A DNA stretch of 64,000 bases from an uncultured Candidatus Rokubacteria bacterium (GTDB taxonomy: Bacteria; JAUVQV01; DATDCY01): assembly GCA_963699775.1 (NCBI GenBank), contig CAVOVE010000015.1:687588-751587 (forward strand). The letters run 5' to 3'. Every line of letters starts with the position of its first letter. Within the stretch, counting starts at the first letter, position 1. The notes beneath the pieces are model-generated. The model searched no databases. It was not told where the DNA came from and saw only the letters and a program-made list of their open reading frames with translations. Positions 33,819 to 53,410 of the stretch are shown here, piece by piece. The position numbers and the translations under genes were made by a program.

Positions 33819-34706
33819 TCAACCGCAGTCCAGGATCGCGCGCAGGGCCGCGGCCCGGGCGGCGCTTTGCGCATCCCCCGTGACCAGTTCGATCTGCTCC
33901 GGTCCGGCGGCGCCGAGACCGAGTTCGACGGCGCGCGCGATCTGCCCCTGGCGGAAGATCGGTTTTCCCATGACCGCCCGGTTGCTGCCGATCTCCTTGA
34001 GGACCGCGAGGCCGACGGCGTCGACGGCGACGCGGTCGGTCCCCGCGAGGACGACGCCCGCGGGCTTCCGGGTCCCCGTCATCGGCCCGCCGTCGACAAA
34101 AGCCTCGAGGCCGTCGAGAACGACGAGGGCCGGCTGGTAGACGGTGTTGACCTCGGCGATCATCCTGCGCATCGAGAGCAGCGACGCGTGCAGCTCGCGC
34201 ATGTTGCGCCGGTGCACCATGCCGATGGAGTTCTTCAACGACATCGTGAAAACACCGCCATAACCGTGAGTCTTGAGGCAGCAGGTCGAAACCACGCACG
34301 GCGACTCGAGGACGGGGCGCGCGAAGTCGAAGCCGTTGAGCCAGGCGCTGCCCGGAGGCTGTTGGCGAACCCAGCCTTCCCGGGGGAGCGTCTCGAGGTC
34401 GAGGATCTCCGCGCCGAGCCGTGCGCAGAGTTGCGGGACTCCCTTGGCAGCCAGGACCGTCGCCATCTGCGCCGGGCCGCAACGGTCGGCGACGGTGACG
34501 CCGACGGCACCCAGCTCCTGCAGGGTCGTGATGAGCGACGCCAGGGTGTCGTTGTGCGTCGAGCCGGGGTAGGGATCAGCGGTGTTGAAATTGGGCTTGA
34601 TCAGCACCCGGACGCTGCGCGCTGCGCTGCAGCCGATGAGTTCGACGGCTGCGCGCACGCCGGCGGCGCGGTCAACGGTCTGGACGAGTGCGACTCGCGA
34701 AGACAT
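33819..34706 (-). CDS. DUF362-domain protein
   Basis: 295 aa; KPNFNTADPYPGSTHND region typical of DUF362; last gene of the peptide-modification operon. Confidence 0.65.
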   Translation of the reverse strand: MSSRVALVQTVDRAAGVRAAVELIGCSAARSVRVLIKPNFNTADPYPGSTHNDTLASLITTLQELGAVGVTVADRCGPAQMATVLAAKGVPQLCARLGAEILDLETLPREGWVRQQPPGSAWLNGFDFARPVLESPCVVSTCCLKTHGYGGVFTMSLKNSIGMVHRRNMRELHASLLSMRRMIAEVNTVYQPALVVLDGLEAFVDGGPMTGTRKPAGVVLAGTDRVAVDAVGLAVLKEIGSNRAVMGKPIFRQGQIARAVELGLGAAGPEQIELVTGDAQSAARAAALRAILDCG

Positions 34707-34728: not shown

Positions 34729-36483
34729 CTATACCACAGGCGTGTCTTCCCGACGATCGTTCGAGGCGCGGGAACCGCCGGCCACGCCGAGGACCCGCGC
34801 GACCATGTGGACGGGGTGGATGAGGTAGAGCAGCGGCACCAGGGCCCCGTGCCGCACGCGCCAGTAGCGCCGCAGGCGCACGGGCGCGGGGAAGAGCGTG
34901 CGCCCGAGACCCGTCAGGCGCGCCGGGCGGAAGAAGAGGCGGGGACTCATCTTCATCAGCCGGGCGAAAAAACGCCCTGTCCCCGGGGCGGCGCTCCGGA
35001 GCGGGAAACCGGCTCGCACCGGCGCCGCGGGCGGCACGCCGCAGCGATCGCAGGCCGCCTCGGCCACCGGACCGGGGTGCAGCAGACGCAGGAGGCCCAG
35101 GGCTTCGGCGATCTCCTCCCCGACGTTCCAGGCGGCGGCCCGCTCGCGCAGCAGCCCCGCGTCCAGCTCGGCGTCATGCAGGGCGAAGTGACGCTGCAGG
35201 TCCGTGAACCAGAGCAGGCGGTTGCCGACGCAGGGACGGAGGAACCAGGCGGCGGGGAGCCCGGCGCGCAGCCCGGCGCGGTTGAGTATGCCGTGCCGGG
35301 CGGCGTGCACCGCGAGGTAGAGGAACTCGTCGACCGGGGCGGGAACGGGGATCGCCAGCGCGCCGGCCATCCTCTCGCCTCGGCGCGCGAGCAGCTCTTC
35401 GGCCGGGATCCGGGCAAGGCAGGCCCGGTCGGTGAGGCCCCAGTGCAGTTCGATCGGGACGCGGCCCTTGCGCGCGCGGTGCGAGCGTGACGTGGAAGTG
35501 CACGCGGTCGAGGAGCCGCGCCGAAATGCCGACCGGGGCGCTGTAGCCGGCGGCGAGGAGCGCCCGACGCGCGCGCGCGTCCGGTCCGCCGGCGCCACGA
35601 GCAGGTCGAGGTCGGAGCTGGAAGCGCTCGGCGCCCGAGGCGTAGAGGTGCACGAGGGCCGGCCCCTTGAGCACGAGGTGCGGCACCCCTGCCGCGATCG
35701 AGGGCGGCAGCGGCCTCGCGAAAGGTCTCGAGCGCATCCAGGTGCGCCAGGCCGGCGCGCAGGGTGTGCCGGCGCAGCTCCCCGGCGATCCCCGCCGGCA
35801 GGGCGGCCCCCGACCAGCGCAGTACGGCGGGGACGACCCCGTGGGTCACGGCCCCCTGCAGCAGGAGCGATCCCGTCGAGGTCGGATCCCGCAATGGGCG
35901 TCGCGGGATCAAGGTCTCTGCGGCAGCAGGCGAGAAGGAACTCGCGCTCGGCCGCGGCGGACTCGTCGTCGAGGGAGAAGACGGGATACGCGGCGGCGAG
36001 CAGCGGCAGTGCGAGGGCCTTGAACGGCCGCAGCAGCCGCCGGCGGCGGCCGCGGCAGACCCGCGGATCCTGCCGCCCGAGACCAGCCCCGCGCGGAGTG
36101 CGTCGGCGAGGTCGGCCTCGACAGCGGGACGCCCGCGTCAGCAGACGCACCGCGAACCGCGAGGCGGGCGGGTCGAGACGGCGCAGCGCGCCGCGGCAGC
36201 CGACCCAGACCGCGCGCCCCTGCACGTCACGGGCGTCGATCCAGCTCGAGACCGCGTTGCCGTCGCCCTTCTCGCGCAGGAGCAGGGTCTCGCCGTCGCG
36301 CCTGAGTTCGAGCACGCGGTGGACCAGCGTGCGCTCCCCGTCGCGAAAGGCCACGATGTCGCCGGGGGAGACCGACCCGCTTTCGCACGGCGCGAGGCCG
36401 ACCTCGGCGCCGTCGCGGATGAGCGGGTACATGCTGCGCCCCGAGGCCCGCACGATGCGCGCCGCCGCAGCGGAGCCGCTCAC
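34729..36483 (-). CDS. S24/S26 (LexA/signal-peptidase-like) peptidase domain fused or adjacent to PF14907-type nucleotidyltransferase-family domain; central part frame-shifted
   Basis: N-terminus ARIVRASGRSMYPLIRDGAEV...GDIVAFRDGERTLVHRVLEL (S24 fold with SM nucleophile); nucleotidyltransferase-family segments GVPHLVLKGPALVHLYASGAERFQ, VHFHVTL, IELHWGL..FLYLAVHAARHG spread over three minus frames. Confidence 0.6.
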   Translation of the reverse strand: MSGSAAAARIVRASGRSMYPLIRDGAEVGLAPCESGSVSPGDIVAFRDGERTLVHRVLELRRDGETLLLREKGDGNAVSSWIDARDVQGRAVWVGCRGALRRLDPPASRFAVRLLTRASRCRGRPRRRTPRGAGLGRQDPRVCRGRRRRLLRPFKALALPLLAAAYPVFSLDDESAAAEREFLLACCRRDLDPATPIAGSDLDGIAPAAGGRDPRGRPRRTALVGGRPAGGDRRGAAPAHPARRPGAPGCARDLSRGRCRPRSRQGCRTSCSRGRPSCTSTPRAPSASSSDLDLLVAPADRTRARVGRSSPPATAPRSAFRRGSSTACTSTSRSHRARKGRVPIELHWGLTDRACLARIPAEELLARRGERMAGALAIPVPAPVDEFLYLAVHAARHGILNRAGLRAGLPAAWFLRPCVGNRLLWFTDLQRHFALHDAELDAGLLRERAAAWNVGEEIAEALGLLRLLHPGPVAEAACDRCGVPPAAPVRAGFPLRSAAPGTGRFFARLMKMSPRLFFRPARLTGLGRTLFPAPVRLRRYWRVRHGALVPLLYLIHPVHMVARVLGVAGGSRASNDRREDTPVV

Positions 36484-39069
36484 GCCAACCCCTCGATGAG
36501 CCGGAGCATCGACTCGAGCCTCCCGGGCGTGAGCTTGTAGAACACGGTGCTCCGCAGCAGCCGCGCCAGGTCCTGGAGAAGCGGCGTCATGCGGCCGCCG
36601 AACTCGCCGGCGATCAGCTCGCTGACCTGGTGCGGGATGATCTTCTTGGAGAACTCCAGGACACCCGCCGCGGCCGGGATCCGCAGCAGTGCCGGCTCCG
36701 CGTCGAAATCCGGATCATCGAGGCCCTCGAGGCGCACGCCGGCGAGGGCGACCCCGTGCTCCCCGACCAGGCGCACGAGGGCCGGCATACCCGTCCCGGG
36801 GTCCGCCATCTCGACGACGACCAGCGTCAGACCGTCCTCCTCCGACCGGGCGTGGACACGCAGGCCGGGAAGCGCGTCGAGCGCCGCGCCGAGCGGATCG
36901 GTCCAGTCGGTGAGGGCCAGCCGCACCTTCCCCTCGTGCTTCGCGAGGGTCAACACCGAGGGCTGCGCGCGCGGCGTGAGAAAGAGCACGACGTCCGGAC
37001 GCACCGGCGCGGCGGGCGGCCGACCGGTGAGTTCGCGCACGTCGACGAGTTTCTTGGCAGTCGCTGCGGAATATCTGGTCCGTTGTCTCCCGGCCGACCA
37101 GGAGAGGTTCGCCCACCCCCGGACGGATGCCGACGGGAAAGGACGCGGGCAGGACGAGTCCGCTCGCGCGCTCCAGCGGGGCGAGCTCGTCCGAGAGCAG
37201 CCCGGCGCCCCGGACGGCGAGGTGCGCCGTGAGCGTGGATTTGCCCATCCGGGAGGGCGCCGCGATCACGACGCCGCGACCCCCGAGGCTCACGCAACCG
37301 GCGTGCGCGAGGTAGGCGGTCCTGACACGCGCCTCGGCGAGATGGACGAGGGTGAGATGCGCCCAGGCGACAAGCTCCTCGCCGCGCAGGCGCCAGGCGC
37401 GCTCCCCGGCCACGAATGTCGCGCGCGGCTCCCGCCCCTCCTCGATCAGTGCGGCGATCTCGACGTCGGGCGGCCGCCCCGGATCGAGGGGGACCTCGAA
37501 GATGCCCAACTCGCGGCGGGCGCCTGCGATCGGAGCGGTCGTGTTCGCACTCAGCCGGACGCGGGTGCCGAAGAGGTCGAATTCGATGGCGTGCCGGGCC
37601 GCGGCGGACACGGCCCCGCGCTCCTCCGGCGCGAGCACGGTTTCCTCGAGGTAGGGAGACGCCACTGCGCCCTCAGGCCGCGCGCCGTGAAAAGAAGCGG
37701 CGGAGAGAAGATAGGGAAGGAATCCCGAGCGCAGCAGCGCGGTGTAATCGCGCGGCCGCGCGTGACGGAGGACGTCCGCCAGGTAGGCCGGAAAGACCCG
37801 GCGGCGGTAGAGGGCGCGCTCCGCCCGCAGCAGCTCGGCGTCGCTCATCTCGGAGAGGTTGGGCGTCGAACCGGCGGCGGGGCCCCCTCCTGCCGCGGGT
37901 GGTTGCCAGAATCGCGGAGCGAGACGTCCCGCGGCGACGAGATCGCGGACGAGGGGGGTCCCGGGCATCGGGATATAGCGAATGAGCCTGACGATCGTCG
38001 GACGCGTGCGGGCGAGGAACCCGTCGGTGAGGCGCGCGTCCCCGGCGGTCTCGCCGGGGGTGCCGATCATCACGGAGGCAAGGGTCCGTATCCCGGCGCG
38101 GCGCGCCAGCCGCAGCGCGGTCTCGTGCGTCGCGAGCGTCTCACCTTTGCCGAGGCGCTCCAAGAGGCGCGGCGAGCCGCTCTCGATCCCGAATTCGAGC
38201 TGGACGCAGCCCGCCCGGCGCATCAGCGCGAGGATCCCCGCGTCGACGGAGTCGGTGCGCACCTGGGCCGCCCAGACGATGCGGCCGGCCAGGCCGCTGC
38301 GAACGAACTCGTCGCAGAGCGCGGCGACGCGGTCGCGGTTCCCGAGGAAGGTCTCGTCCTGGAAGTAGATCCCCTCGACGCCGTGCGCCGCGACGAGCCG
38401 CTCGACGTCCGCGACCACGCGGGCGGCGGAGTGCCAGCGGTGCGGCGCCGGGTAGAGTCGGCCCTCGGCGCAGAAGCGGCAGACGCCCGGGCAGCCGCGC
38501 GAGGAGAGGACCGTCGCGGTGCGCAGCGGCAGGCAGGGTATCGCGCGCAGCGTGCGGCCGGTGTGGTAGCCCATCTCGAGCAGGTCCCAGGCGGGCGGCG
38601 GGATCCGGTCGAGATCCGCAAGCGGCGGCCGGGGTCGAGCGCGGCTGACGGCGCCGCCCGTCCGGGCCGCCGTCCCGGGCACTCCCGCGAGCGGTGCGCC
38701 GGCGGCTATCTCGAGGAGGGTCTCCTCGGGTTCGCCGATCACGATGCCGTCGAGGAACGGGTGCGCCGCAAGGGTCTCTTCGGGAACCAGTGTCGGATGC
38801 CGGCCGCCGGCCAGCAGGAGCGCCGACGGCGCCGCCTCGCGGGCGAGCGCGCCGCAGCGAGCGAAGTCGGCGAGACGCTCGAGCGGCACGTCGAAGAGGA
38901 CGACCCCGGGGGAGAGTTTCCCGATCGCAGCCCGGAAGAGATCGGCGGCACCCTCCGGTGCGGCGGCGGGGGCCGCGATGCGGTCGAACTCCAGAAGGGA
39001 CACCTCGTGCCCGCCCCCCCGGAGGGCGGCGGCGGCGAGGGGCAGATACACCGGCGTCCAGAGCGGCAT
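36480..39069 (-). CDS. B12-binding radical SAM domain protein (N-terminal approx. 460 aa) continuous with an HprK-related P-loop kinase-like C-terminal domain; frame change near 36720-37040
   Basis: B12-binding LAAAALRGGGHEVSLLEF..LLLAGGRHPTLVPEE; radical SAM SSRGCPGVCRFCAEG, YFQDETF; then VVIAAPSRMGKSTLTAHLAVRGAGLLSDELAPLER (HprK C-domain-like P-loop), continued in ORF 36480..37040; no stop between the domains in the assembled frame. Confidence 0.6.
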
Positions 39070-39150
39070 CGACGGCAGCTGCCGCCGCGGCCGTCAGGTC
39101 GACGAGCGCTACGCGCACGCGCGGCGCCGCCGCTCCCGCCGCAGCGGGTT

Positions 39151-39447
39151 TCAAGACTGTTTTTCGCCTGCAGGCACCGCCGGACCGAGGAGCCCCTTCG
39201 CGGCCATCGCCCGGAGGCTCTCCCGAATCATCGCTGCCGGATCGGCGTGAGCGGCCAGGTCGTACCGCTCGCGCAGCCGCTGCTCGATTTCCGGTACGTC
39301 CAGACCGGCCTTGAGGCCCTCCCAGATAGCGGCGGAAGCCTCGTTCAGAACGTGGACCTGATCGGTCTCGGCGTCGAAGACCATGATCTCCTCGCCCAGA
39401 CGTTCCTCTCGCAGGTGCGGCCGGGGGCGGTACGTCTCCGTCACGGT
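39151..39447 (-). CDS. PqqD-family protein (RiPP recognition element / peptide chaperone)
   Basis: 97 aa; LGEEIMVFDAETDQVHVLNEASAAIWEGL matches the PqqD beta-strands/helix pattern; GTG start. Confidence 0.7.
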   Translation of the reverse strand, partial: TVTETYRPRPHLREERLGEEIMVFDAETDQVHVLNEASAAIWEGLKAGLDVPEIEQRLRERYDLAAHADPAAMIRESLRAMAAKGLLGPAVPAGEKQS

Positions 39448-39562
39448 TCCTCGCTAATCGAGCGACGCTCGGAATGCCGGTAAAGACCTGCTGGGTTTCG
39501 AACTCCTCGCGTTTGAAGGTTTCAATCGCCGGGACCGGCAGGGGCTGCTTCGGGTCGCGCAT
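39448..39562 (-). CDS. candidate precursor peptide ORF (MRDPKQPLPVPAIETFKREEFETQQVFTGIPSVAR...), 3' end undefined because it runs into pqqD in +1 frame
   Basis: ATG at approx. 39562 preceded by GAGGAGAG Shine-Dalgarno at -7; alternative upstream ATG at 39613 (MLDRKAKESATLTRRAK-); positioned immediately 5' of the PqqD gene, as is usual for RiPP precursors. Confidence 0.3.
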
Positions 39563-39638: not shown

Positions 39639-40985
39639 CTAGTCCGGGAACGGGGCGTTGTCGACCGCGGGACGGGGAAATTTCGTCTCCCGGCCGGTGC
39701 CGAGCACTTTCCAGAGCGGATAGTGCTCATAGCGGCCGAGGAGGGCCTCGATGTCGAGGTCACGCTCCGCAAAGCTGTAGAACACGATGCAAAGCGGGGA
39801 CCGCCACCCGCCACCGCGTACACCCTCGAGGAGCTCGCCGACCGTGGCGCCATCGTCCGGGGCGACCCGCCCGGCTTCGATGGCCGACGCGAGCAACTCC
39901 ACAAACCGCCCTGGAGCCCGTCCGCGCAGAAACCGCTGCGCCGGTGCCCGGACCCAGATACGCTCGCACAGCGGCGCGACGGCGCGCGAGATCTCCCGGT
40001 AGTACTCGTCGCGCCGTCCGCCGCAGGCGGTGAGGATTCCTACGGTGGCGTCGCACCCGAGCGAGTGTGCCAGGCGCTCGAAGAGCGGTATCTCCAGACG
40101 GTAGCTCGCGGGGTTCTTGCACTCGCTCAGCAGCACGTGGATACCGGCGCCGCGCAGCAGGGTGTTGCGGCAGACGTTGTCCCGCGGTTCCAGACCGAAC
40201 TCGCGCAGGGCGGCGAGGGCGGCGCTTGTGTCGAGCCGGACCCGCCTCCCCAGCGCCTCGTGCGCGGCCAAGGCAGCCATCGCGTTCGCGGTGTTGTGCG
40301 CCTGGAAGCCCCCGAGCGTGATCGGGATCTCGCCGACAGCGATCACGGGCCGCGCGCCTTCGGGGCCTTTCTTCCAGATCGTCCCCCCTTCGAGGTACCA
40401 GCAGCGGGGGTGCTCGCCCTGACGGCCTTCAACGGTGAAGAAGACCGTCTCCACGCCGCGCGGGCGCGGCATCGCGCGCACGAGCGGGTCGTCGGCGTTC
40501 AGGACTACCGTCCCGCCGCGGCGCACCCGGCGGGGGATGGCCGCCTTGACGCGGGCCATAGCCTCCACAGTTTCGATCCCGCGGTCGCCAAGGTGGTCGG
40601 GAAGGACGCTCGTCACCACGCCGACGTCGATGCGGCTGAAGCCCGGTCCGTACTCGAGCAGGCCCCCGCGAGCCGTCTCCAGCACAAGCGCCTGTACCCC
40701 TGGACACTGCGCTGCCCGCCAGGCGCCTCCCGGCCCGGCCTCGTCCCGGCGGTTGACATAGTGCCCGGCGTGGGCCACCCCATCGGTGGTGCAGGCCCCG
40801 ACGCGGAGCCCGGAGGCTCCCAACATCCGGGCGAGGAGCTTCACAACGGTGGACTTGCCATTGGTTCCCGTGACGGCGGCGATGGGGACCCGCAGCGCAG
40901 CGAGGCGCGGCCGCACGAGGAGGCGGACCGCCGTACGATAGGCGGCAATCCTCAGGTGGTAGTGCCGGTCGACGAATCCCTTGAG
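39639..40985 (-). CDS. Mur-ligase-family protein (CphA C-terminal / CapB / MurD-like amide ligase)
   Basis: VPIAAVTGTNGKSTVVKLLARML (Mur ligase P-loop), VLETARGGLLEYG, DVGVVTSVLPDHL middle-domain motifs; approx. 449 aa; GTG start overlapping upstream rSAM gene. Confidence 0.7.
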   Translation of the reverse strand, partial: LKGFVDRHYHLRIAAYRTAVRLLVRPRLAALRVPIAAVTGTNGKSTVVKLLARMLGASGLRVGACTTDGVAHAGHYVNRRDEAGPGGAWRAAQCPGVQALVLETARGGLLEYGPGFSRIDVGVVTSVLPDHLGDRGIETVEAMARVKAAIPRRVRRGGTVVLNADDPLVRAMPRPRGVETVFFTVEGRQGEHPRCWYLEGGTIWKKGPEGARPVIAVGEIPITLGGFQAHNTANAMAALAAHEALGRRVRLDTSAALAALREFGLEPRDNVCRNTLLRGAGIHVLLSECKNPASYRLEIPLFERLAHSLGCDATVGILTACGGRRDEYYREISRAVAPLCERIWVRAPAQRFLRGRAPGRFVELLASAIEAGRVAPDDGATVGELLEGVRGGGWRSPLCIVFYSFAERDLDIEALLGRYEHYPLWKVLGTGRETKFPRPAVDNAPFPD

Positions 40986-42000
40986 ACCCACCGCTGACCT
41001 CCCCTCTGGCCGGCGAACAGTGCGCGAGACGGCTCGAAGCACGAACAGCCCCGACAGAACCTCGGGACACACCTGCCGCGGGACCAGAGCGCCCGTCGTA
41101 TCTCCCGCGCTTTCGCGCCGCCCCAGGCGAGCGCGAAACCCTTGTTGTCCGCAGCCCCGAGCACCATGCGGCCTCCCCAGTCCTGGCAGCAGAGGAGCAC
41201 TCTTCCGTCGCGAAGAACCGCTGCGCACTGGAATGGCGCACTGCACGCCGGCAGCGCGCGACCGAAGGCGAGCCTCAGCCTCCGTCGCCACGGCCGACGC
41301 AACTCCGCTGCTGCGAACTCGCTGTAGCGAACGAGCTCTCCGGCCCGGTTTCTCAAGGGCAGGACCAGCGCCTCGACGCCGCGCTCCGTCCAGTGGCGGA
41401 GGAACTCGGACGCTTCCCCGGCATTGGCACGCTGGCGAACGAACCGGACGCGGACTTCGAGCCCGCGCTTCCGCGCCGCCGCGACCCCGGCGACGGCCCG
41501 ATCGAAATCGAGCCCCGGACGCACCACCCGATAGGTCTCCGGCCTGAGCGCATCGAGGCTGACCTCGATGAAATCGAGTCCGCCTGCGGCCAGCTCCCCC
41601 GCGCGAGCCTCGTCGAGCAGCGAACCGATGGTGACGACGCCGATCCGGCAGCGGGGTCCGAGGGCGACCCGGGCCTCGCGCACGCGCAGTCCGAGCTCCG
41701 GGTCGAGGAGCGGTTCGTTCTGGAGCATGAGCACGAGGATCCGCACGCTGCCGGCGTCGGCGAGTTCACCGATGATGCTGCGGTACAGCCCGGCCGCCAT
41801 CGTCCCGCCGTCGCGGCCGCAACCGTGAGCAACCGGGCAGGTCGGGCATCGGCCGTTGCACCCGCCCACGGTCTGAATCTGGACGACGCGAGGGCCGGGG
41901 AAAGCAGCCTCAGCGCCAGCGAGCAAGGCGAGCCCGCGGCGTGCGAGATCGGCACCCAGGAGGGCGTCTGCCGCGATCGCGCGGGCGCGCCGGGTCAGGC
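40952..42000 (-). CDS. radical SAM protein with SPASM/twitch-type C-terminal Cys cluster
   Basis: CNGRCPTCP (CxxxCxxC), GEPLL-like NEPLLDPEL, C-terminal CSAPFQC...LCCQDW...CRGC; start codon uncertain. Confidence 0.75.
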
Positions 42001-42090
42001 GCCCCACCCGGATCCGCCAGGCACGATCGCCTTCCCGCTGCGCTCCACGCTCAGCGCCGATTTCGCTCCCGGTTCCATCCTGGCGGCTGT

Positions 42091-46864: not shown

Positions 46865-48451
46865 CTAGGGCGCCATCCGCGTCAGCACGATGTCCGGATT
46901 GCGCTCGGAGAAGTAGCGGCATTCCCACTCGCCGGCGAAGAGGATCACCAGGTTGCCGTGCACGTCGTGCGCGAGCTGGCAGCCGCCCATCAGCGGCTTT
47001 TCGGCGACGACGGCCGCGCTCTCGGCGGCGACCCAGCGGACGGTCTTCCAGGACATCAGTTCCAGCCGGGAATCCGCCCCGTACTCGGCAAGAAGCCGGT
47101 GCTGCAGCACTTCGAACTGCAGCGGACCCACCGCGCCGAGCAGCGGCAGGCGCTGGGCGGCGTCCTTCAGCGCGAAGGTCTGCACCACCCCTTCCTGAAG
47201 CAGGTGCTCCAGCCCGGCCCGGAAACGCTTCGACTTCGCCGCGTTGGGACAGTGCAGAAAGGCGAAGTGCTCCGGCATGAAGCGCGGGATGCTCTGGTGG
47301 ACGACCGACGGGTCTTCGGTCAGGGTGTCGCCGATCAGGAACTCGGCGTGGCCGACGAGCCCGACGACGTCCCCGGCGTAGGCCTCGTTGACGATCTCGC
47401 GCTCCTGCCCGAAGAGCTTGTGCGAGCTCGAGAGCCGGACGCTGGTCGCCGGTGCGCGGGTGGAAGACCTTCATGTCGCGCTCGAAGCGGCCGGAGCAGA
47501 CGCGCATGAAGGCGATCTGGTCCCGGTGCCGCGGGTCCATGTTCGACTGGATCTTGAAGACGAACCCCGAAAAGCGCGGGTCGTCCGGGGCGATCTCGCC
47601 CTCCAGCAGCTTGCGCGGCCCGGGCGGCGGGGCGTAGTCGAGGAAACCGTCGAGCAGCAGCTGCACGCCGAAGTTGTTGACCGCGCTGCCGAAGAAGACG
47701 GCGGTCATGTCGCCGCTGCAGGACGGCCGCGTGGTCGAAGGTCTCGCCCGCCCCGTCGAGCACGGAGACCTCCTCGAGCACCTTCCGGTACGAGCGCCGC
47801 GTCGAGCCGCTCGGCGACCGCGTCGTCGGCCAGATCGAGCACGGAGACCGGCGTCCGGTAGGCGCCCCCGGGCACCCGCTCGAAGAACGAGACCAGCTTG
47901 CGGCGGCGATCGAACACGCCCCGGAAGTCCGGGCCGGTCCCGAGGGGCCAGTTCACGGGGTAGACGTGCAGCTGCAGCGTGCGCTCGATCTCGTCGAGCA
48001 GGGCCAGCGGCTCGTGCGACGGCCGGTCGAGCTTGTTGATGAACGTGAAGATCGGGATCTGCCGGTTGCGGCAGATTTCAAAGAGCTTGAGCGTCTGGCT
48101 CTCGATGCCCTTGGCGGCGTCGAGCACCATGACGACGGCGTCGACGGCCATCAGCACGCGGTAGGTGTCCTCCGAGAAATCCTTGTGGCCGGGGGTGTCC
48201 AGCAGGTTGATGCAGAAGTCCCGGTATTCGAACTGGAGCACGGTCGAGCTGACCGAGATGCCGCGCTTGCGCTCGAGCTCCATCCAGTCGGAGGTCGTGT
48301 TTCTCTGGTTTTTCCGGGCCGTCACCGACCCGGCCAGGTGCACGGCGCCGCCGTACAGCAGCAGCTTTTCCGTCAGGGTGGTCTTGCCGGCGTCGGGGTG
48401 CGAGATGATCGCGAACGTCCGCCGCCGGGAAACCTCTTTCATCAAATCCAC
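46865..48451 (-). CDS. prfC: peptide chain release factor 3; two frame changes
   Basis: [39 protein letters not shown] GTPase motifs (ORF 47705..48451); middle and C-terminal domains in ORFs 46761..47708 and 46865..47278. Confidence 0.85.
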
Positions 48452-48541: not shown

Positions 48542-49553
48542 TCATAACAACCGGCCGGCAAGGGTCACCCCGGGACCGCGCGGGCCGTAGAGGCGACGTG
48601 CCAACTCGGCGAGCCAGCGGCCCCGCGCGTCGTCGCGAAGCTCGAGCCGCCCCGCCCGCGCACCGGCGAGCAGCAGCGAAATCTCCTCGCCCGGGGTTCC
48701 GAGACGCCGCAGCGTCTCAAAGAGCGCGGCGTGCTCGGGGCTCGCGCCCGTGCTCTCGGTCCACTCCCGGGCGGCCGCGGCAAACTCCGGGTCAGGCGGA
48801 AGGGGGACCTCCTCGGACGCCGCGGGGCCGAGGCCGTTGATCGCGTCGATCACCCGCTCCTTGCGCTCCTTGTACGGGCAGTGCCGCAAGTTCCGCCGGC
48901 AGGATCGCCGCGCCGATGGTGATCCGCTGGCCGCCCATGCCGACCGGGTACTCGAGTTTGGCCGTCAGCGGCTCGACCGGCAGCCCGCCCGCGAAGCGGA
49001 CCGGGACCACGGGCGCGCCCGTGGCGATGGCCATGTCGAGAAAGGCCCCGCTCATCTTCTGCACCGGGGCGCGGCAGGTGAGCGCCCGCGTCCCCTCCAC
49101 GTGGATCATCACGGACTTGCCGCCGCCGGCGATCTCGCGCGCCAGCACGCCGATGATCCGCGGCAGCTCCTCGCGGTTGCTGCGGTCGAAGTAGGTGATC
49201 ACCCCCGGGTCGTGCGCCCCCGGCCAGGCGAAGGCGTGGCGGATCAGGTTCCCGAGCCAGGTCGTGCGGTGCTCGATCTTGGCCAGGGTCACGGTGAGGA
49301 TCCCCGAGAGCGCCGAGGCGATCAGCGAGAAGAGGATCGACTCGATGCCGACCTGATGGTTCGCGAGGTAGAGGACGCCCTTCCCGCGCAGCGCGGCGAA
49401 GCCCGCGGGGTCCTCGAGGCGCACGCGCCGCACGAAGCGCCCGGCCAGACCGTAGTAGATGTCCTCGACGGGCCAGCGCCCGATCCGGTAGTAGTCGTCC
49501 CACCAGTCGCGAACCGGCGAGAGATCGAGAGTCGGCGGCCCGGCATCGCTCAC
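48542..49553 (-). CDS. 1-acyl-sn-glycerol-3-phosphate acyltransferase-like (AGPAT/PlsC family); probable C-terminal domain or partner of Pfa3
   Basis: LYLANHQVGIESIL (HxxxxD/E block), VMIHVEGTRA, FLDMAIATGAPVVPVRFAG; C-terminal 100 aa in another frame (ORF 48542..48889). Confidence 0.75.
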
Positions 49554-49559
49554 CGAGAC

Positions 49560-50433
49560 CGCCGCCGCGCGTGCGCTCGACGGTGAGCGGCCAAACCGTG
49601 AGCGGCTCGGACGGGCAGCGTGCGAGCACCAGGCTGGGGCAACCGCCAGGGGAATCCGGGCTCACGGCGGCCGAGCCCGTGTCCGCCACGACGCTCGACG
49701 GGTGCACCGCGGCTCGTGCCGCAACGTGCTCCTTCACGGCGATCTGGCCGAGCAGGTCGCCCTCGGCCGCGTAGGCCTGAGCGAGCGTGCCGGGGAGCCA
49801 GTCGCTGGCGCGGACGTCGGCGTCCGCGAGGTGCGTCGTCCCGCTCCTGTCGCTGGAGAGTCGCAGCCCGGGCACAAAGCGACGGTCGCGCAGGAAGGCG
49901 CGCCGATCGCGCGGCGGCGCGGACCCGAGCGCTCCCTTGGGGAACAGCACCTCCACCAGGTCGAGGCTCGCGATCACCCGGCCGCTGGCGATCGCCTGGA
50001 TCTGAAATCGCGGGAACCGGGGGTCGCCGTCGAAACCGGCGAAGCGCGTCTCGCAGCGCACCTCGCCTGCAGCCGGGAGCGGCGCGAACAGCCGCAGCGA
50101 CACGATGCGGTGCGGGTAGGCGACCTGGTCGGCGGGGATCTCCGGGCTCCAGTCGCAGAGTCGGTCGTGGGGAATGCCGTGGGTCAGCGCGTCGAGCAGC
50201 GCCTCGTGGAGCAGACCGCGCGGCTCGCCGCCCCCGGCGGCGTCGAGGAGCGAGGAGGAGGCGCCGGGGACGAGCTTGAGGGAGCGCAGCAGTTGGAAGG
50301 ACGGTCCGTGAAAGAGGGTCCCGGACTCGTAGGGATCCGGCGACGGGGTGGCGTTGGACGGCGGATCCCAAGGAACATCGAGCGCGCATTGTTCCCGTTC
50401 GGGCTGCGGGGTCCTGTCGCTGCGGACCTCCAT
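49560..50433 (-). CDS. PKS-type dehydratase C-terminal half (LFHGPSFQ motif) initiated from the repeat-borne ATG; probably continuous with the AGPAT domain
   Basis: MEVRSDRTPQP-EREQCALDVPWDPPSNATPSPDPYESGTLFHGPSFQLLRSLKLVPGASSSLLDAAGG...; no HxxxGxxxxP half downstream of the repeat. Confidence 0.5.
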
Positions 50434-50516
50434 GGGCTTCGCTTCGCTCACCCCCTGGAGACCTCCCCTCCGCGCCACCCCTTCGCCCAGCGCGTCCTCT
50501 GGGCAGTGACGGGGAA
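50391..50516 (-). repeat. MITE-like repeat, copy B (126 bp; TIRs GTTCCCGTTCGGG / TGACGGGGAA; contains ATG-GAGGTCCGCAGCGACAGGACCCCGCAGCC)
   Basis: same family as copy A; lies between the triple-DH gene and the DH'-AGPAT gene. Confidence 0.75.
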
Positions 50517-50529
50517 GTCCTCGTGGCTG

Positions 50530-53332
50530 CCAATCATGGAGGTTTCGTGTTCGGGGGCGAGACGCACCCGGCCCGTGGCAACGGGTTCGAAGCGGGAGAG
50601 GGATTCACTCGCGGCGTCGCGCCAGGCGAGCAGGGTCACGTCGAAGACGCCCTCCCCCGCCGGAGCAACCTCCGTCGTGAGGCGCAGCGGACCGGTGACC
50701 GGGACCCAGCGCAGCGCGCGGGCGTCTTCCACGGCCACGACCCGCATCCCGGGCGCCCGACGTACGGCAGCCCGCGCCAGGCGGTCGACCATCGACATCA
50801 GCGGCAGGGCCGGCACCGTCCAGGTCGGGCGATGGTCCTGGAGCCAGGTGTCGACGTCGGGATCGAGCATCTCTTCGCCGTCCGCAGCGCCCCCGCCGCC
50901 CTTCCCCCTTCGCCAGAGGGGGATCGCGCACGACCCGCATCGCCAAGCCCCGGGCCTCGTAGATTTTCGTGCCGTCCACCCAGAGCGAGGCGTCCGCGAC
51001 CGCGAGCGGGCCGCGGTCGTCCTCCCCGGTGCGCACCAGGTCCAGGAGCGTTGTCACCCGGCGGTTGCGCGGCAGCACCTGTCCCCGATACTTCCAGGAG
51101 TGCTGTTCGCCGAGGGCCAGCGGTTCGAACCGCGCCGCGCCGCCCCTGCTCTCGGCCATCCCCTGGTGGATCATCGCGAACTGCAGCAGTTGGAGCATCG
51201 CCTCCAGGCCGAGCGAGCCGGGCTGCACCGGGTCCTGGAAGAAGTGCGCCTTGAAGAACCAGGCCGCGGGGTCGACGTCGGTCTCGGCGCGATACCGTCC
51301 GAGCCCGGCCGGACCGCCGGCAGGCCAGATGCCGGTCACGCGGTCGAGCATCAGCAGCGGCGCGGTTTCCATCCGGGGGCCATCCCCTGCCCCGCCCTCC
51401 GCCAGGTCTGCAGATCGACCGACTCCGAGCGCACCTCGTCGAGCGCTTCGCGTTCCCCCGCAGCGGCCGGGAGGCCGACCTGTCGGGCCAGGGCTTCCGC
51501 GGGAAAGTAGCCGAAGACGGTCTTGAGGTCGTACACCGTCCGCTCGCCGACGCTGCAGACGACGTCGAAGCTTTCGATGAGCATCCCCGCCGACCGCGAG
51601 ATCCGCGTCAGCACCGCGCGGGTGCGCAGCCTGCCGTCGCCGGGGAAGACCTCGGCGAGCAGGCGGCCGTCGCCGTCGAGGTTGCGGAAACTCAGGTCGC
51701 GCTCGGACGTCAGCGGACTGCCGGCCCAGGTCGCCAGCCAGCCGCAGGGCTGCAGCGCGGCCTCGAGCAGGACGGCAAAGGGCATCGTGCGCGCGCCGTT
51801 CGCGGCGAAATACCAGGCGTCGGCGGGGATGTCGTACTCGACCTCGACCGCGCTGCCCTCGCGCATCGCCCCCATCTCGCCCTCGAGGCGCGTGACGCGC
51901 GACATGAACTGGTAGGGCGGGCCGGGGAGGCGCGCCAGCCGGCGCACGCCGTCGAAGGCGCGGTAGGCGGGGCCGAACGCCTGCCGACGGCCGCCCCCAG
52001 GCGCAGGCCAGCAGCGAGCGCCCGTCGAAGCGCAGGTCGCCCTCGGACGCGGCGGGTTCCCCGTCGACGATGCCGTCCAGCAGTTCGGGCTTCGAGTCCA
52101 GCGGCCACCCGGGGACGAGGCGCAGGCCCATGCGGCGGCAGTGGAAGGCCTTGAGCCCGTCGACCGTGCACAGGATGTCGGCGTAGAGCGTCGGCTCCGG
52201 TCCGGCGATCAGCTCCTCGACGAAGATTTCGTACACGAGTTCGCGCGAGGCCGGGGTGACCTGGCCGCGGCAGCGCATCAGGTAGGGCTCATCCGGCACC
52301 GGCTCGAAGCGCCAGCCGTCCCGCTCCAGCGTGAAGCCCAACGCGGCCAGGTAGACCGCCATCGCCTGCAGGCCGCCCTCGAACATCAGGGTCCCGGGCA
52401 TGCAGGGGTCGTTCGTGAAGTGTCCCTCGAAGAACCAGTCGCCCGGGTCGATGCGATCCACGGCGCGCAGATAGCCTCGTCCCCAGGGCCCGCCCCCGAC
52501 GGCGATCTCCGTCACCTCTTCGAGCAGCAGCAGCCGGCCGCCGGGCAGATTCGGCGTGCGGGTGTGAGTCGCAGCCCCCTCGAAGCCGGGACCGAAACAC
52601 GCGTCGGCGCGCCCGGCCGCGAAGGCCTCGAGCTGCGCGCGGGAGAGCCGCGACCGGCCCGGCGGACACCGGCGGCGGATCGACCCGCGCCCCGTCCCGC
52701 GGCTCGAGCGGTCGCCGGGTCCCAGAGCACGCCCGCCGACCCGGCGAGTTCCTCGTCGGTGAAGAAGCCGGCCTGCCCGCCCCGCACGGTGAGGCGGGGG
52801 ATACCCGGCGACGGTGCAGGTGGAGTGGAAGAAGAAGAGACGGACCGCCCCCTGCTGCGCGTGGCCGTCGACGCCGATCTCGTAGCGCAGGGTTTCGCCG
52901 GCGACGGGGAGCCCGCCGTGGTAGGTCAGCTCGCAGCCGAGCAGCCGGTAGACGCGCTCCCCGCGGTTGAGGGCGTCGACGCCGAGCCAGGAGACGAGCA
53001 GCAGGTCGGCCTGCCCGGCCTCGATCATGATCCCCGCGGGCATGCGGTTGTCGTGCAGGTACCAGGCGCCCGCCGCGACGTCGGTCTCCGTCCAGACGGT
53101 GCCGGTGCCCAGCGAGAGGGGTTCGGCCTCCAGGCGCACGACGCGATCGGCGAGCAGCAGCGGCGGTTCGGGCATGCGGACGCGCCGGGTGCAGGCCGTC
53201 CTGGTCGGCGAATGCGGGACCGAAGATTTGGGAGAGTCGTCCGCTGGCGTGGATTTCGAGGGCGCGCCTGTCGAACACAATACCGTCCGTTGACCGTGCA
53301 GGCTGCGGGGTCCTGTCGCTGCGGACCTCCAT
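50530..53332 (-). CDS. Pfa3-like segment: three FabA-like hot-dog dehydratase folds; starts with the repeat-encoded MEVRSDRTPQP
   Basis: FDRRALEIHASGRLSQIFGPAF; MPAGIMIEAGQADLLLVSWLGVDALNRGERVYRLLG; DPGDWFFEGHFTNDPCMPGTLMFEGGLQAMA; DVDPAAWFFKAHFFQDPVQPGSLGLEAMLQLL; frame change near 53200. Confidence 0.75.
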
Positions 53333-53410
53333 CGTGCTCGCTTCGCTCCGCCGCGGAGACCTCCCCTCCGCGCCACCCCTCGCCGGAAGCGTCTCCAGAA
53401 GGAGCGTGTT
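53288..53410 (-). repeat. MITE-like repeat, copy C (degenerate ends; possible 7-bp CGTGCAG flanking duplication)
   Basis: same core as copies A/B; supplies ATG and first 10 codons of the triple-DH gene. Confidence 0.65.

Follow-up and report, generated by a model that had tools for sequence, protein, structure and literature searches.

Phosphorylation of peptides by relatives of HPr kinase is known from lasso peptide tailoring, where a serine of the precursor is phosphorylated by HPr-kinase homologues and a nucleotidyltransferase then adds a hexose to the phosphate (PMC8498205). Like the tailoring clusters of paeninodin and pseudomycoidin (PMC8498205), the locus analysed here has genes for an HprK-like P-loop protein and a nucleotidyltransferase next to those for a short precursor and a PqqD-like leader-binding protein. 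In two distant relatives of the locus, L001 and L084, an asparagine-synthetase-like enzyme is found beside the operon, as in lasso clusters. However, the L001 homologue of this cyclase has no tblastn match (E ≤ 1e-3) in the 64-kb window, meaning the whole stretch of DNA analysed, and none is called in the related loci L002 and L003. A lasso peptide cluster in the window was therefore ruled out. The window, L002 and L003 also differ from lasso clusters in having no transglutaminase-like B2 protease. Further, the kinase-like protein is set apart from lasso kinases by its length of about 394 aa, by a long C-terminal extension and by HprK models that match around the P-loop only, while the candidate core ends in Asp instead of the Ser of the lasso substrate. 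The operon additionally encodes a B12-dependent radical SAM enzyme, a SPASM radical SAM enzyme and a Mur-ligase-like enzyme, all of which go beyond the lasso clusters.

Among curated models, the P-loop, PqqD-like and SPASM radical SAM proteins score best with those of Haft's conserved peptide-modification cassettes, namely the HPr-rel-A system (TIGR04352/TIGR04353) and the SynChlorMet cassette (ScmC PF27840, ScmD TIGR04248, ScmE/F TIGR04250/1). All scores fall below the curated cut-offs, either far or just: 44 bits vs 200 for the kinase-like protein with TIGR04352, 33.5 bits vs 35 for the PqqD-like protein with TIGR04353 (19.6 bits for its L003 counterpart), 20 vs 100 and 43 vs 400. ScmC has precomputed matches for several homologues of the kinase-like protein, weak or faint wherever graded. 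The threshold for HPr kinase/phosphorylase (PF07475/TIGR00679) is likewise not reached (Hpr_kinase_C 16.7-20.1 bits vs 33.3), and the Hpr_kinase_C profile is matched at positions 8-57 of 171 only, corresponding to the P-loop region. By these scores, the operon proteins appear to be a related, uncurated family and members of neither the HPr-rel-A system nor the SynChlorMet cassette. RiPP-modifying class B radical SAM enzymes (ApyD NF050148, rSAM_ocin_1 TIGR03975) share with the enzyme encoded here an N-terminal B12-binding domain followed by a CxxxCxxC radical SAM core, and their genes likewise share an operon with genes for a short peptide and a PqqD-like protein. Unlike them, the enzyme scores no higher than 134 bits, far from the 750 required (133.9 bits being its best score among characterised equivalogs such as ApyD, BchE and HpnJ), and it is thus not assigned to any characterised enzyme or reaction.

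The features of the operon in the window, in order of their coordinates, are the following:

34729..36483, minus strand: gene for a signal-peptidase-like (S24/S26) N-terminal domain joined to an NTP_transf_5 nucleotidyltransferase, from Pfam matches; 4-nt overlap with the stop of the kinase-like gene.
36480..37665, minus strand: gene for an HprK/ScmC-like P-loop protein, 394 aa once an inserted C at about 37057 is removed.
37663..37675, minus strand: conserved gene junction, with TGA at 37675..37673, a GAGGG Shine-Dalgarno sequence at 37674..37670 overlapping the stop, a 7-nt spacer and GTG at 37665..37663.
37695..37710, minus strand: putative 1-nt deletion that makes the apparent fusion, best placed as TCCC to TCC at about 37703 and ambiguous within a few bases.
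37673..39118, minus strand: class B (cobalamin-dependent) radical SAM gene, 481 aa after two indel corrections, from GTG at 39118 to TGA at 37675..37673.
39151..39444, minus strand: PqqD-like peptide-binding (RRE) protein, 97 aa (Pfam PqqD, 33.7 bits vs 23.4).
39454..39562, minus strand: candidate 35-aa precursor peptide, MRDPKQPLPVPAIETFKREEFETQQVFTGIPSVVD up to its stop; the TAG is out of frame through an inserted base at about 39468.
39639..40991, minus strand: cyanophycin-synthetase-like enzyme of the Mur ligase family, from family matches; 86% identical to the L003 gene.
40952..about 42007, minus strand: radical SAM/SPASM enzyme, from family matches; 82% identical to the L003 gene.

As written, the minus-strand ORF at 36715..39069 comprises 784 codons and leads from the B12-binding/radical SAM enzyme into the HprK-like P-loop domain, as had been described in a sequence-only reading of this DNA, and the fused frame contains zero stop codons from 39096 to 36717. 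Its 784-aa product matches Pfam B12-binding (PF02310) at aa 4-121 with 45.3 bits, above the gathering score of 32.1, and Radical_SAM (PF04055) at aa 189-344 with 66.4 bits vs 29.5. A weak match to the Hpr_kinase_C/HprK_rel_A P-loop is located at aa 580-649. Landmarks are the CxxxCxxC motif at aa 193, LPYLLSAASF at aa 451 and VVIAAPSRMGKST at aa 600, and across the junction the frame reads SAASFHGARPEGAVASPYLEE. The sequence-only reading had proposed a single radical SAM-kinase polypeptide of new architecture or, alternatively, two coupled genes whose stop or start had been lost to indel noise. The latter matches the evidence. The 784-codon ORF is almost certainly an assembly artefact, the true locus consisting of two separate adjacent minus-strand genes, 39118..37673 and 37665..36480. 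As written, the apparent fusion would include only half of a kinase domain, after which 118 aa are read out of frame.

Support for two genes comes from four related loci, L001, L002, L003 and L084, all of which encode a separate radical SAM enzyme of 463-483 aa followed 2-7 nt later by a kinase-like gene of 393-394 aa. L002 (contig JBTSLB010000024.1 of the 'Candidatus Methylomirabilia bacterium' MAG GCA_054640855.1) and L003 (Logan contig SRR22388267_30554) share with the window the small ORF, the PqqD-like, B12-dependent radical SAM, HprK/ScmC-like and S24-like/NTP_transf_5 genes as well as a junction made up of TGA, 7 nt and a start codon. L002 additionally has prfC and a PUFA synthase nearby. 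Both loci differ from the window in that the radical SAM and kinase-like (394 aa) genes are separate ORFs, the window departing from them by single-base indels only. The corrected lengths in the window, 481 and 394 aa, are those of L002.

The junction itself is retained in the window. A stop, a ribosome-binding site and a start codon are all found within the interval of about 37690 to 37400, where by the account of the earlier reading itself their presence would speak against a fusion, and the junction aligns column for column with TGAGGGGCGCATG of L002 and L003. In these two loci, the stop and start assigned by the gene caller are TGA and, after a 7-nt spacer, ATG, in place of which the window has GTG. 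The stretch from the last in-frame aligned codon to the conserved TGA is 29 nt long in the window vs 30 nt in L002; counted from the L003 alignment, it is 26 nt vs 27 nt. The TGA is thus out of frame because 1 nt is missing about 28 nt upstream. The missing base, near 37703, we infer from relatives that are about 85% identical in DNA and not from this genome itself. The TTTT run at 37693..37690 was considered as the indel site as well, but the L002/L003 alignment favours about 37703 and either placement yields the same stop. With the base restored, the radical SAM protein ends in LLSRRFFSRRAA, its L003 counterpart in LLSRRLLPRRAA. The two genes lie close together and are probably translationally coupled.

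The two halves of the frame can each be followed in their homologues. Besides the missing base near 37703, the radical SAM gene carries one further window-specific indel, an inserted G near 39092. With both corrected, the gene product shares 85.7% identity with the 481-aa enzyme of L002 and about 85% with that of L003. Its nine closest homologues are 476-483 aa long and end at about aa 466 of the window protein, and the cluster cysteines C193, C197 and C200 of the CxxxCxxC motif are invariant in 10 homologues. Kinase-like homologues align from their own residue 1 at GTG 37665. What the sequence-only reading took for 150 aa of linker aligns residue for residue with the N-terminal part, about 130 aa, of stand-alone 394-aa homologues, beginning at residue 1. 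In the window, this gene falls into two pieces by tblastn, one each in frames -2 and -3, the kinase-like homology switching frame and continuing from about 37060 to 36480, so that the single frame change previously noted is real as written. It is needed to reach 36480 because of the inserted base at about 37057, which was placed by DNA alignment. The repaired P-loop protein shares 80% identity at 100% coverage with the 394-aa homologue P0026 (P0027 and P0028 are also 394 aa) and about 78-79% amino acid identity with the L002 and L003 proteins. Its Walker A motif (consensus GxxGxGKS/T) reads SRMGKST and, like the LLSDE motif, is intact, and G141, K142, S143 and T144 together with the downstream LSDE are invariant in 13 kinase-like homologues.

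Searches for fused proteins agree with this picture. Single polypeptides with a radical SAM and an HprK_C-like domain, which the sequence-only reading had proposed to look for in protein databases, were not found beyond P0001, the window's own ORF and the only return of the fused query. All matches to the kinase-like protein are at most 404 aa long and none of them is fused. In a profile search of 1.84 billion representatives, the best 150 matches, which include every match with E<1e-30, are at most 418 aa long, align from near their own N-terminus and contain no fused protein. Patterns back-translated from the kinase alignment were too general when run against genome contigs, with distant HprK_rel_A-type loci from Proteobacteria and other phyla, and no close relatives, among the matches listed.

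How two genes would come to read as one can be explained by two errors in GC-rich DNA. Loss of one base before the radical SAM stop would put the TGA out of frame and lead the radical SAM frame into the frame of the downstream gene, where in such GC-rich DNA it would meet no stop, while a second error, the inserted base at about 37057, would break the kinase-like gene. GC content across the 64-kb window is 64-75% and stops make up 1.2% of codon positions. Stop-to-stop ORFs of 300 codons or more number 93 and add up to 2.2 times the window length, and 10 of the 93 are 780 codons or longer; one of these 10, an antisense ORF of 978 aa across the fusion locus, is plainly spurious. With stops this scarce, stop-free continuity is not evidence of fusion. 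A GC3 frame plot showed a frame change at about 37080 and further changes in the next gene, but cannot by itself tell a fusion from a junction as no more than about 10 codons ahead of the TGA are read in the shifted frame.

Gene fusions commonly arise when a stop is lost between co-functional genes that lie close together. A real 1-nt deletion that removed the radical SAM stop and created a bifunctional radical SAM/kinase polypeptide would be in keeping with the stop-free frame between 39096 and 36717 and with the two genes being neighbours in four related loci, and would couple radical chemistry and phosphotransfer on one chain. Against this stand the stop, Shine-Dalgarno sequence and start codon, all of which are kept, a kinase-like part whose own frame breaks after another 600 nt, at about 37057, the failure of large protein searches to return a fused homologue and the indel noise of the window. 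Where L002 and L003 agree, the 4.9 kb of the operon contain 11 window indels of 1-2 nt. The window copy of prfC has three single-base insertions, at 47795, 47719 and 47448, in a protein otherwise 95-99% identical to that of L002, the last 4.8 kb of a PUFA-synthase gene carry nine window-specific indels and GC3 tracing changes frame every 0.1-1.6 kb in the 14.5-kb megasynthase region. The overall rate is about 2 single-base indels per kb, seen in the window only and not in its relatives. With about 2 frame-breaking indels per kb, and three in prfC, the prior that any one of them is real is very low. We therefore consider a genuine fusion very unlikely. Its more specific form, a lineage-specific B12-radical SAM-HprK/ScmC-like fusion within an uncharacterised peptide-modification pathway, in which the organism truly lacks the base at about 37703 and the insertion at about 37057 is a sequencing error, is more improbable still.

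The 11 frame-breaking indels in 4.9 kb could also be taken to indicate a decaying pseudogene cluster, with real indels, an operon in the process of being lost and neither a fusion nor two functional genes expressed. However, the density of indels is equal in the housekeeping prfC and PUFA synthase genes, each frame piece keeps 73-99% protein identity to relatives and the true frames have accumulated no stop codons. The operon moreover has no indels in multiples of 3 nt, which is the pattern of sequencing error and not of relaxed selection, and decay is accordingly given a lower probability again. Programmed recoding, in which a ribosomal frameshift near the 3' end of the radical SAM gene would give a regulated balance of separate and fused products, could draw on the shifted-frame stop and the continuing frame both being present at the junction, but neither a slippery heptamer nor a conserved frameshift is evident, the radical SAM gene of L002 and L003 simply ends in an in-frame stop here and window-wide noise already accounts for the frame change, leaving it a negligible chance.

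With the locus read as two genes, a false claim to a new domain architecture falls away. Public protein collections already contain the 784-aa product as called (P0001, NCBI/ENA), and mining by domain architecture can be misled by it there; at about 2 indels per kb and high GC all ORF boundaries in the window need frameshift-aware handling. Radical chemistry and the predicted phosphorylation would, by analogy with the tailoring systems above, be coupled at the level of the operon and not on one chain. The order of the candidate 35-aa precursor and the PqqD-like, B12-radical SAM, P-loop and signal-peptidase-like/NTP_transf_5 genes is conserved in relatives. By tblastn, the candidate precursor has matches in a 35-aa ORF of L003, at 71% identity, and in the two small ORFs of L001, and the PqqD-like protein shares 82-84% identity with its 97-aa counterparts in L002 and L003. 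The Mur-ligase-like and SPASM radical SAM genes lie in the same order upstream of the operon in L003.

By analogy to lasso peptide tailoring, we hypothesize that the PqqD-like protein presents the leader of the precursor and that the B12-dependent radical SAM enzyme modifies, probably methylates, an unactivated carbon in the core. In the same core (VFTGIPSVVD), the P-loop protein may phosphorylate the hydroxyl of a Ser or Thr, as suggested by the lasso peptide kinases (PMC8498205) and its own weak family matches. The nucleotidyltransferase domain could then decorate the core phosphate and the peptidase-like domain could remove the leader. A literature search on TIGR04352, HprK-related kinase, NTP_transf_5 and PF14907 found nothing relevant. 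We know of no product of such an operon type. The window, L002 and L003 represent a conserved, apparently uncharacterised peptide-modification operon of Methylomirabilia-like bacteria, encoding the precursor, PqqD-like, B12-radical SAM, HprK/ScmC-like, peptidase/NTP_transf_5, Mur-ligase-like and SPASM radical SAM proteins, which may merit study in itself through the accurate relatives L002 and L003 instead of the window.

One domain fusion in the operon is genuine, namely that of the S24/S26-like and NTP_transf_5 domains in a single gene (34729..36483). The gene has about eight window-specific indels of 1-2 nt, and homologues of 540-582 aa are found 3' of the kinase-like gene in L001, L003, L084 and L085. 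The L002 copy ends at 353 aa, at the end of its contig.

The 784-codon ORF that runs through both the cobalamin-dependent radical SAM (B12-rSAM) and the HprK/ScmC-like P-loop (kinase-like) regions is almost certainly an artefact. The sequence-only reading had proposed an rSAM-kinase fusion and named two coupled genes merged by indel noise as the alternative. The alternative is upheld and the fusion is rejected: the homologues are separate proteins, a conserved TGA lies one base out of frame and indels found only in the window are pervasive.

36715..39069 (-), apparent fused ORF of 784 codons, from ORF calling
36547..39483 (+), antisense ORF of 978 aa over the whole rSAM/kinase locus, without coding signal

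The underlying observation was correct: the quoted strings could be located in the ORF, and at about 37060 the kinase-like homology passes into a second frame, which it follows as far as the stop at 36480. B12-binding (aa 4-121) and Radical_SAM (aa 189-344) domains score over the Pfam gathering thresholds and Hpr_kinase_C (aa 587-636) is sub-threshold. Among NCBIfam models, HprK_rel_A (aa 580-649) matches the P-loop only, scoring 44 bits where the cut-off is 200, and class-B rSAM matches are distant only. Stops make up 1.2% of codon positions in the window, and its 64 kb include 93 ORFs that run from stop to stop for at least 300 codons, ten of them, the antisense ORF included, for at least 780, so that stop-free continuity carries slight weight as evidence. 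The antisense ORF itself illustrates how little long ORFs tell at such GC content.

When the repaired rSAM-plus-kinase protein was used as query, the only retrieved protein covering both parts was the ORF of the window itself (P0001; one member, one contig). Public protein collections (NCBI/ENA) already contain the artefactual 784-aa product. The next nine matches (47-60% identity) consist of the rSAM alone, with lengths of 476-483 aa, and all of them terminate opposite window residue ~466. Reconstruction of the downstream protein from the GTG at 37665, with one base removed at the frame break, yields 394 aa matching P0026, a 394-aa protein from a 'Candidatus Methylomirabilia' MAG, at 80% identity and 100% coverage; further matches are P0027 and P0028 (394 aa) and ten proteins of 365-404 aa. 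Since the repaired protein matches these stand-alone homologues, what had been taken for 150 aa of linker is instead the N-terminal domain of the kinase-like family. In a search of 1.84 billion cluster representatives, a profile built from 13 members of this family recovered 141 proteins at E<1e-30, and the best 150 matches are all at most 418 aa long and aligned from near their own N-terminus. No fused rSAM-kinase relative was found with the rSAM-plus-kinase query or among these best 150 matches.

A stop with a ribosome-binding site and start between about 37690 and 37400 had been named as evidence against a fusion, and these elements are present:

37675..37673 (-), rSAM TGA stop, from the junction alignment
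37674..37670 (-), Shine-Dalgarno sequence GAGGG
37665..37663 (-), kinase-like GTG start, aligning with the ATG of relatives

The TGA is kept in all four aligned junctions, and stop and start are 7 nt apart in the window. The junction reads TGAGGGGCGCATG in the two closest related loci, L002 and L003, and TGAGGGCGCAGTG in the window; the kinase-like N-termini correspond (VASPYLEE in the window, MAASYLEE in L002). From the last in-frame aligned codon (L002 residue 471, at 37705), the TGA follows after 30 nt in L002 and 29 nt in the window; by the L003 alignment, 27 and 26 nt precede it, respectively. MAFFT places the gap at ~37703 (TCCC in L003, TCC in the window). Restoring one base converts the out-of-frame tail LSAASFHGARPEG... 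into ...LLSRRFFSRRAA followed by the stop, which reads as plainly homologous to the L003 terminus ...LLSRRLLPRRAA. An inserted G at ~39092 breaks the N-terminus of the rSAM as well. The rSAM in fact begins at the GTG at 39118, giving VRVALVDLTPRR... compared with VRVALVDLTPRP... in L002, and this start shares its nominal frame with the TGA at 37675, as expected if +1 and -1 errors offset each other. After correction the rSAM is 481 aa long and the kinase-like protein 394 aa, both as in L002. Spacer and start (37663..37672 (-)) read GGGCGCAGTG in the window and GGGGCGCATG in L002 and L003, which could reflect five substitutions or, alternatively, the loss of one G and the insertion of another; on the latter reading the true kinase-like start would be ATG, not GTG.

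Similar lesions occur across the window, in the following regions:

34729..39562 (-), operon stretch with indels
46871..48451 (-), housekeeping gene prfC (release factor 3, RF3), protein 95-99% identical to L002
48554..64000 (-), PUFA-synthase-like (pfa-type) megasynthase cluster, syntenic with L002, fragmented over many frames by indels

Alignment of 4.9 kb of operon DNA with L003 (84.6% identity) and L002 revealed ten indels of 1-2 nt, all confined to the window, with L002 and L003 agreeing at each and none a multiple of three. An eleventh, a 1-nt insertion at ~39468, removes the TAG stop of the candidate 35-aa precursor gene, which reads on as a 490-aa ORF. Three single-base insertions (47795, 47719 and 47448) divide prfC into four frame pieces, and the last 4.8 kb of the PUFA-synthase gene (48554..53360 (-)) carry nine single-base indels. 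GC3 tracing places a frame switch every 0.1-1.6 kb over the whole 14.5-kb megasynthase region, where the pieces of a PfaD-like enoyl reductase lie in three frames and those of a ketosynthase domain in two; the cluster further includes KS-AT, tandem ACPs, KR, KS/CLF, FabA-type dehydratases and an acyltransferase. Against two independent relatives, the total is ~23 single-base indels in ~11.3 kb compared, or ~2 per kb, mostly insertions. The frame pieces keep high protein identity, stops have not accumulated and in-frame indels are absent, a pattern consistent with sequencing or assembly error rather than with decaying pseudogenes. With ~2 indels per kb, some gene among the ~55 in the window can be expected to carry one within its final 30-45 nt, and in such GC-rich DNA the shifted frame would run straight into the next gene. 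That the deletion before the rSAM stop is real is highly improbable. Each ORF boundary, 'fusion' and 'pseudogene' call in the window is suspect.

The two genes belong to a conserved, tightly packed minus-strand operon: CARDB-like gene, radical SAM/SPASM, cyanophycin-synthetase-like Mur-ligase-family enzyme, 35-aa ORF, PqqD-like protein, B12-rSAM, P-loop protein, signal-peptidase-like/NTP_transf_5 protein and DUF362 protein. The fusion itself is of low value as a finding; the operon is worth noting and best studied in accurate relatives rather than in the window.

39639..42007 (-), cyanophycin-synthetase-like Mur-ligase-family and radical SAM/SPASM enzymes, directly upstream of the precursor
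39454..39562 (-), candidate 35-aa precursor peptide MRDPKQPLPVPAIETFKREEFETQQVFTGIPSVVD, leader-like motif LPxPxxETFxRxE conserved
34729..36483 (-), signal-peptidase-like (S24/S26) N-terminal domain plus NTP_transf_5 nucleotidyltransferase domain, ~8 indels in the window
33819..34706 (-), flanking DUF362 protein, 64% identity to its homologue beside the operon in the more distant L001 (L001:1203-2105)

Precursor homologues carrying the motif are found in L001 (two copies) and L003, and L084 has three small ORFs at this position. The S24/S26-NTP_transf_5 gene overlaps the preceding stop by 4 nt. Its domain join is the operon's genuine fusion; full-length homologues have 540-582 aa in L001, L003, L084 and L085, with both domains confirmed by Pfam in L003. 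The Mur-ligase-family/SPASM pair is present in the same order in L003 (82-86% identity) and absent from L001, L002 and L084, which suggests variable tailoring steps in a modular operon.

We infer that the operon encodes a ribosomal-peptide modification pathway; we found no operon of this type with a characterised product. The roles are assigned by analogy with lasso-peptide clusters, where homologues of HPr kinase transfer phosphate to a Ser in the linear precursor and an accompanying nucleotidyltransferase attaches hexose to the Ser phosphate (PMC8498205). The PqqD-like protein would bind the leader, the B12-rSAM would alkylate a core carbon that is unactivated, the P-loop protein would phosphorylate a Thr or Ser of VFTGIPSVVD, with the NTP_transf_5 domain elaborating the phosphate, and the peptidase-like domain would remove the leader. 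The DUF362 protein may also take part. If radical and phosphoryl chemistry are coupled, the coupling sits at the operon level. A tblastn search with the L001 Asn-synthase homologue found no lasso cyclase in the window (E<=1e-3), and all curated family scores for the locus fall below cut-offs. The locus is therefore a relative of three systems (lasso, HPr-rel-A and SynChlorMet) and a member of none of them.

Gene order in related loci
L001 (Logan): rSAM 483 aa, gap to next gene 2 nt, kinase-like 393 aa
L002 (GCA_054640855.1): rSAM 481 aa, gap 7 nt, kinase-like 394 aa
L003 (Logan): rSAM 465 aa as called, gap 7 nt, kinase-like 394 aa
L084 (JGI): rSAM 463 aa, gap 2 nt, kinase-like 394 aa

In all four loci an NTP_transf_5 gene (559-582 aa; the L002 copy is cut by the contig end) follows the kinase-like gene. 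In a more distant relative (L085:556-3358), small ORFs precede the kinase-like and NTP_transf_5 pair, and immediately upstream of the pair no B12-rSAM was called, on a contig that extends past the retrieved stretch. The rSAM therefore looks like an accessory neighbour, not an obligatory partner, and the P-loop/nucleotidyltransferase pair like the conserved core.
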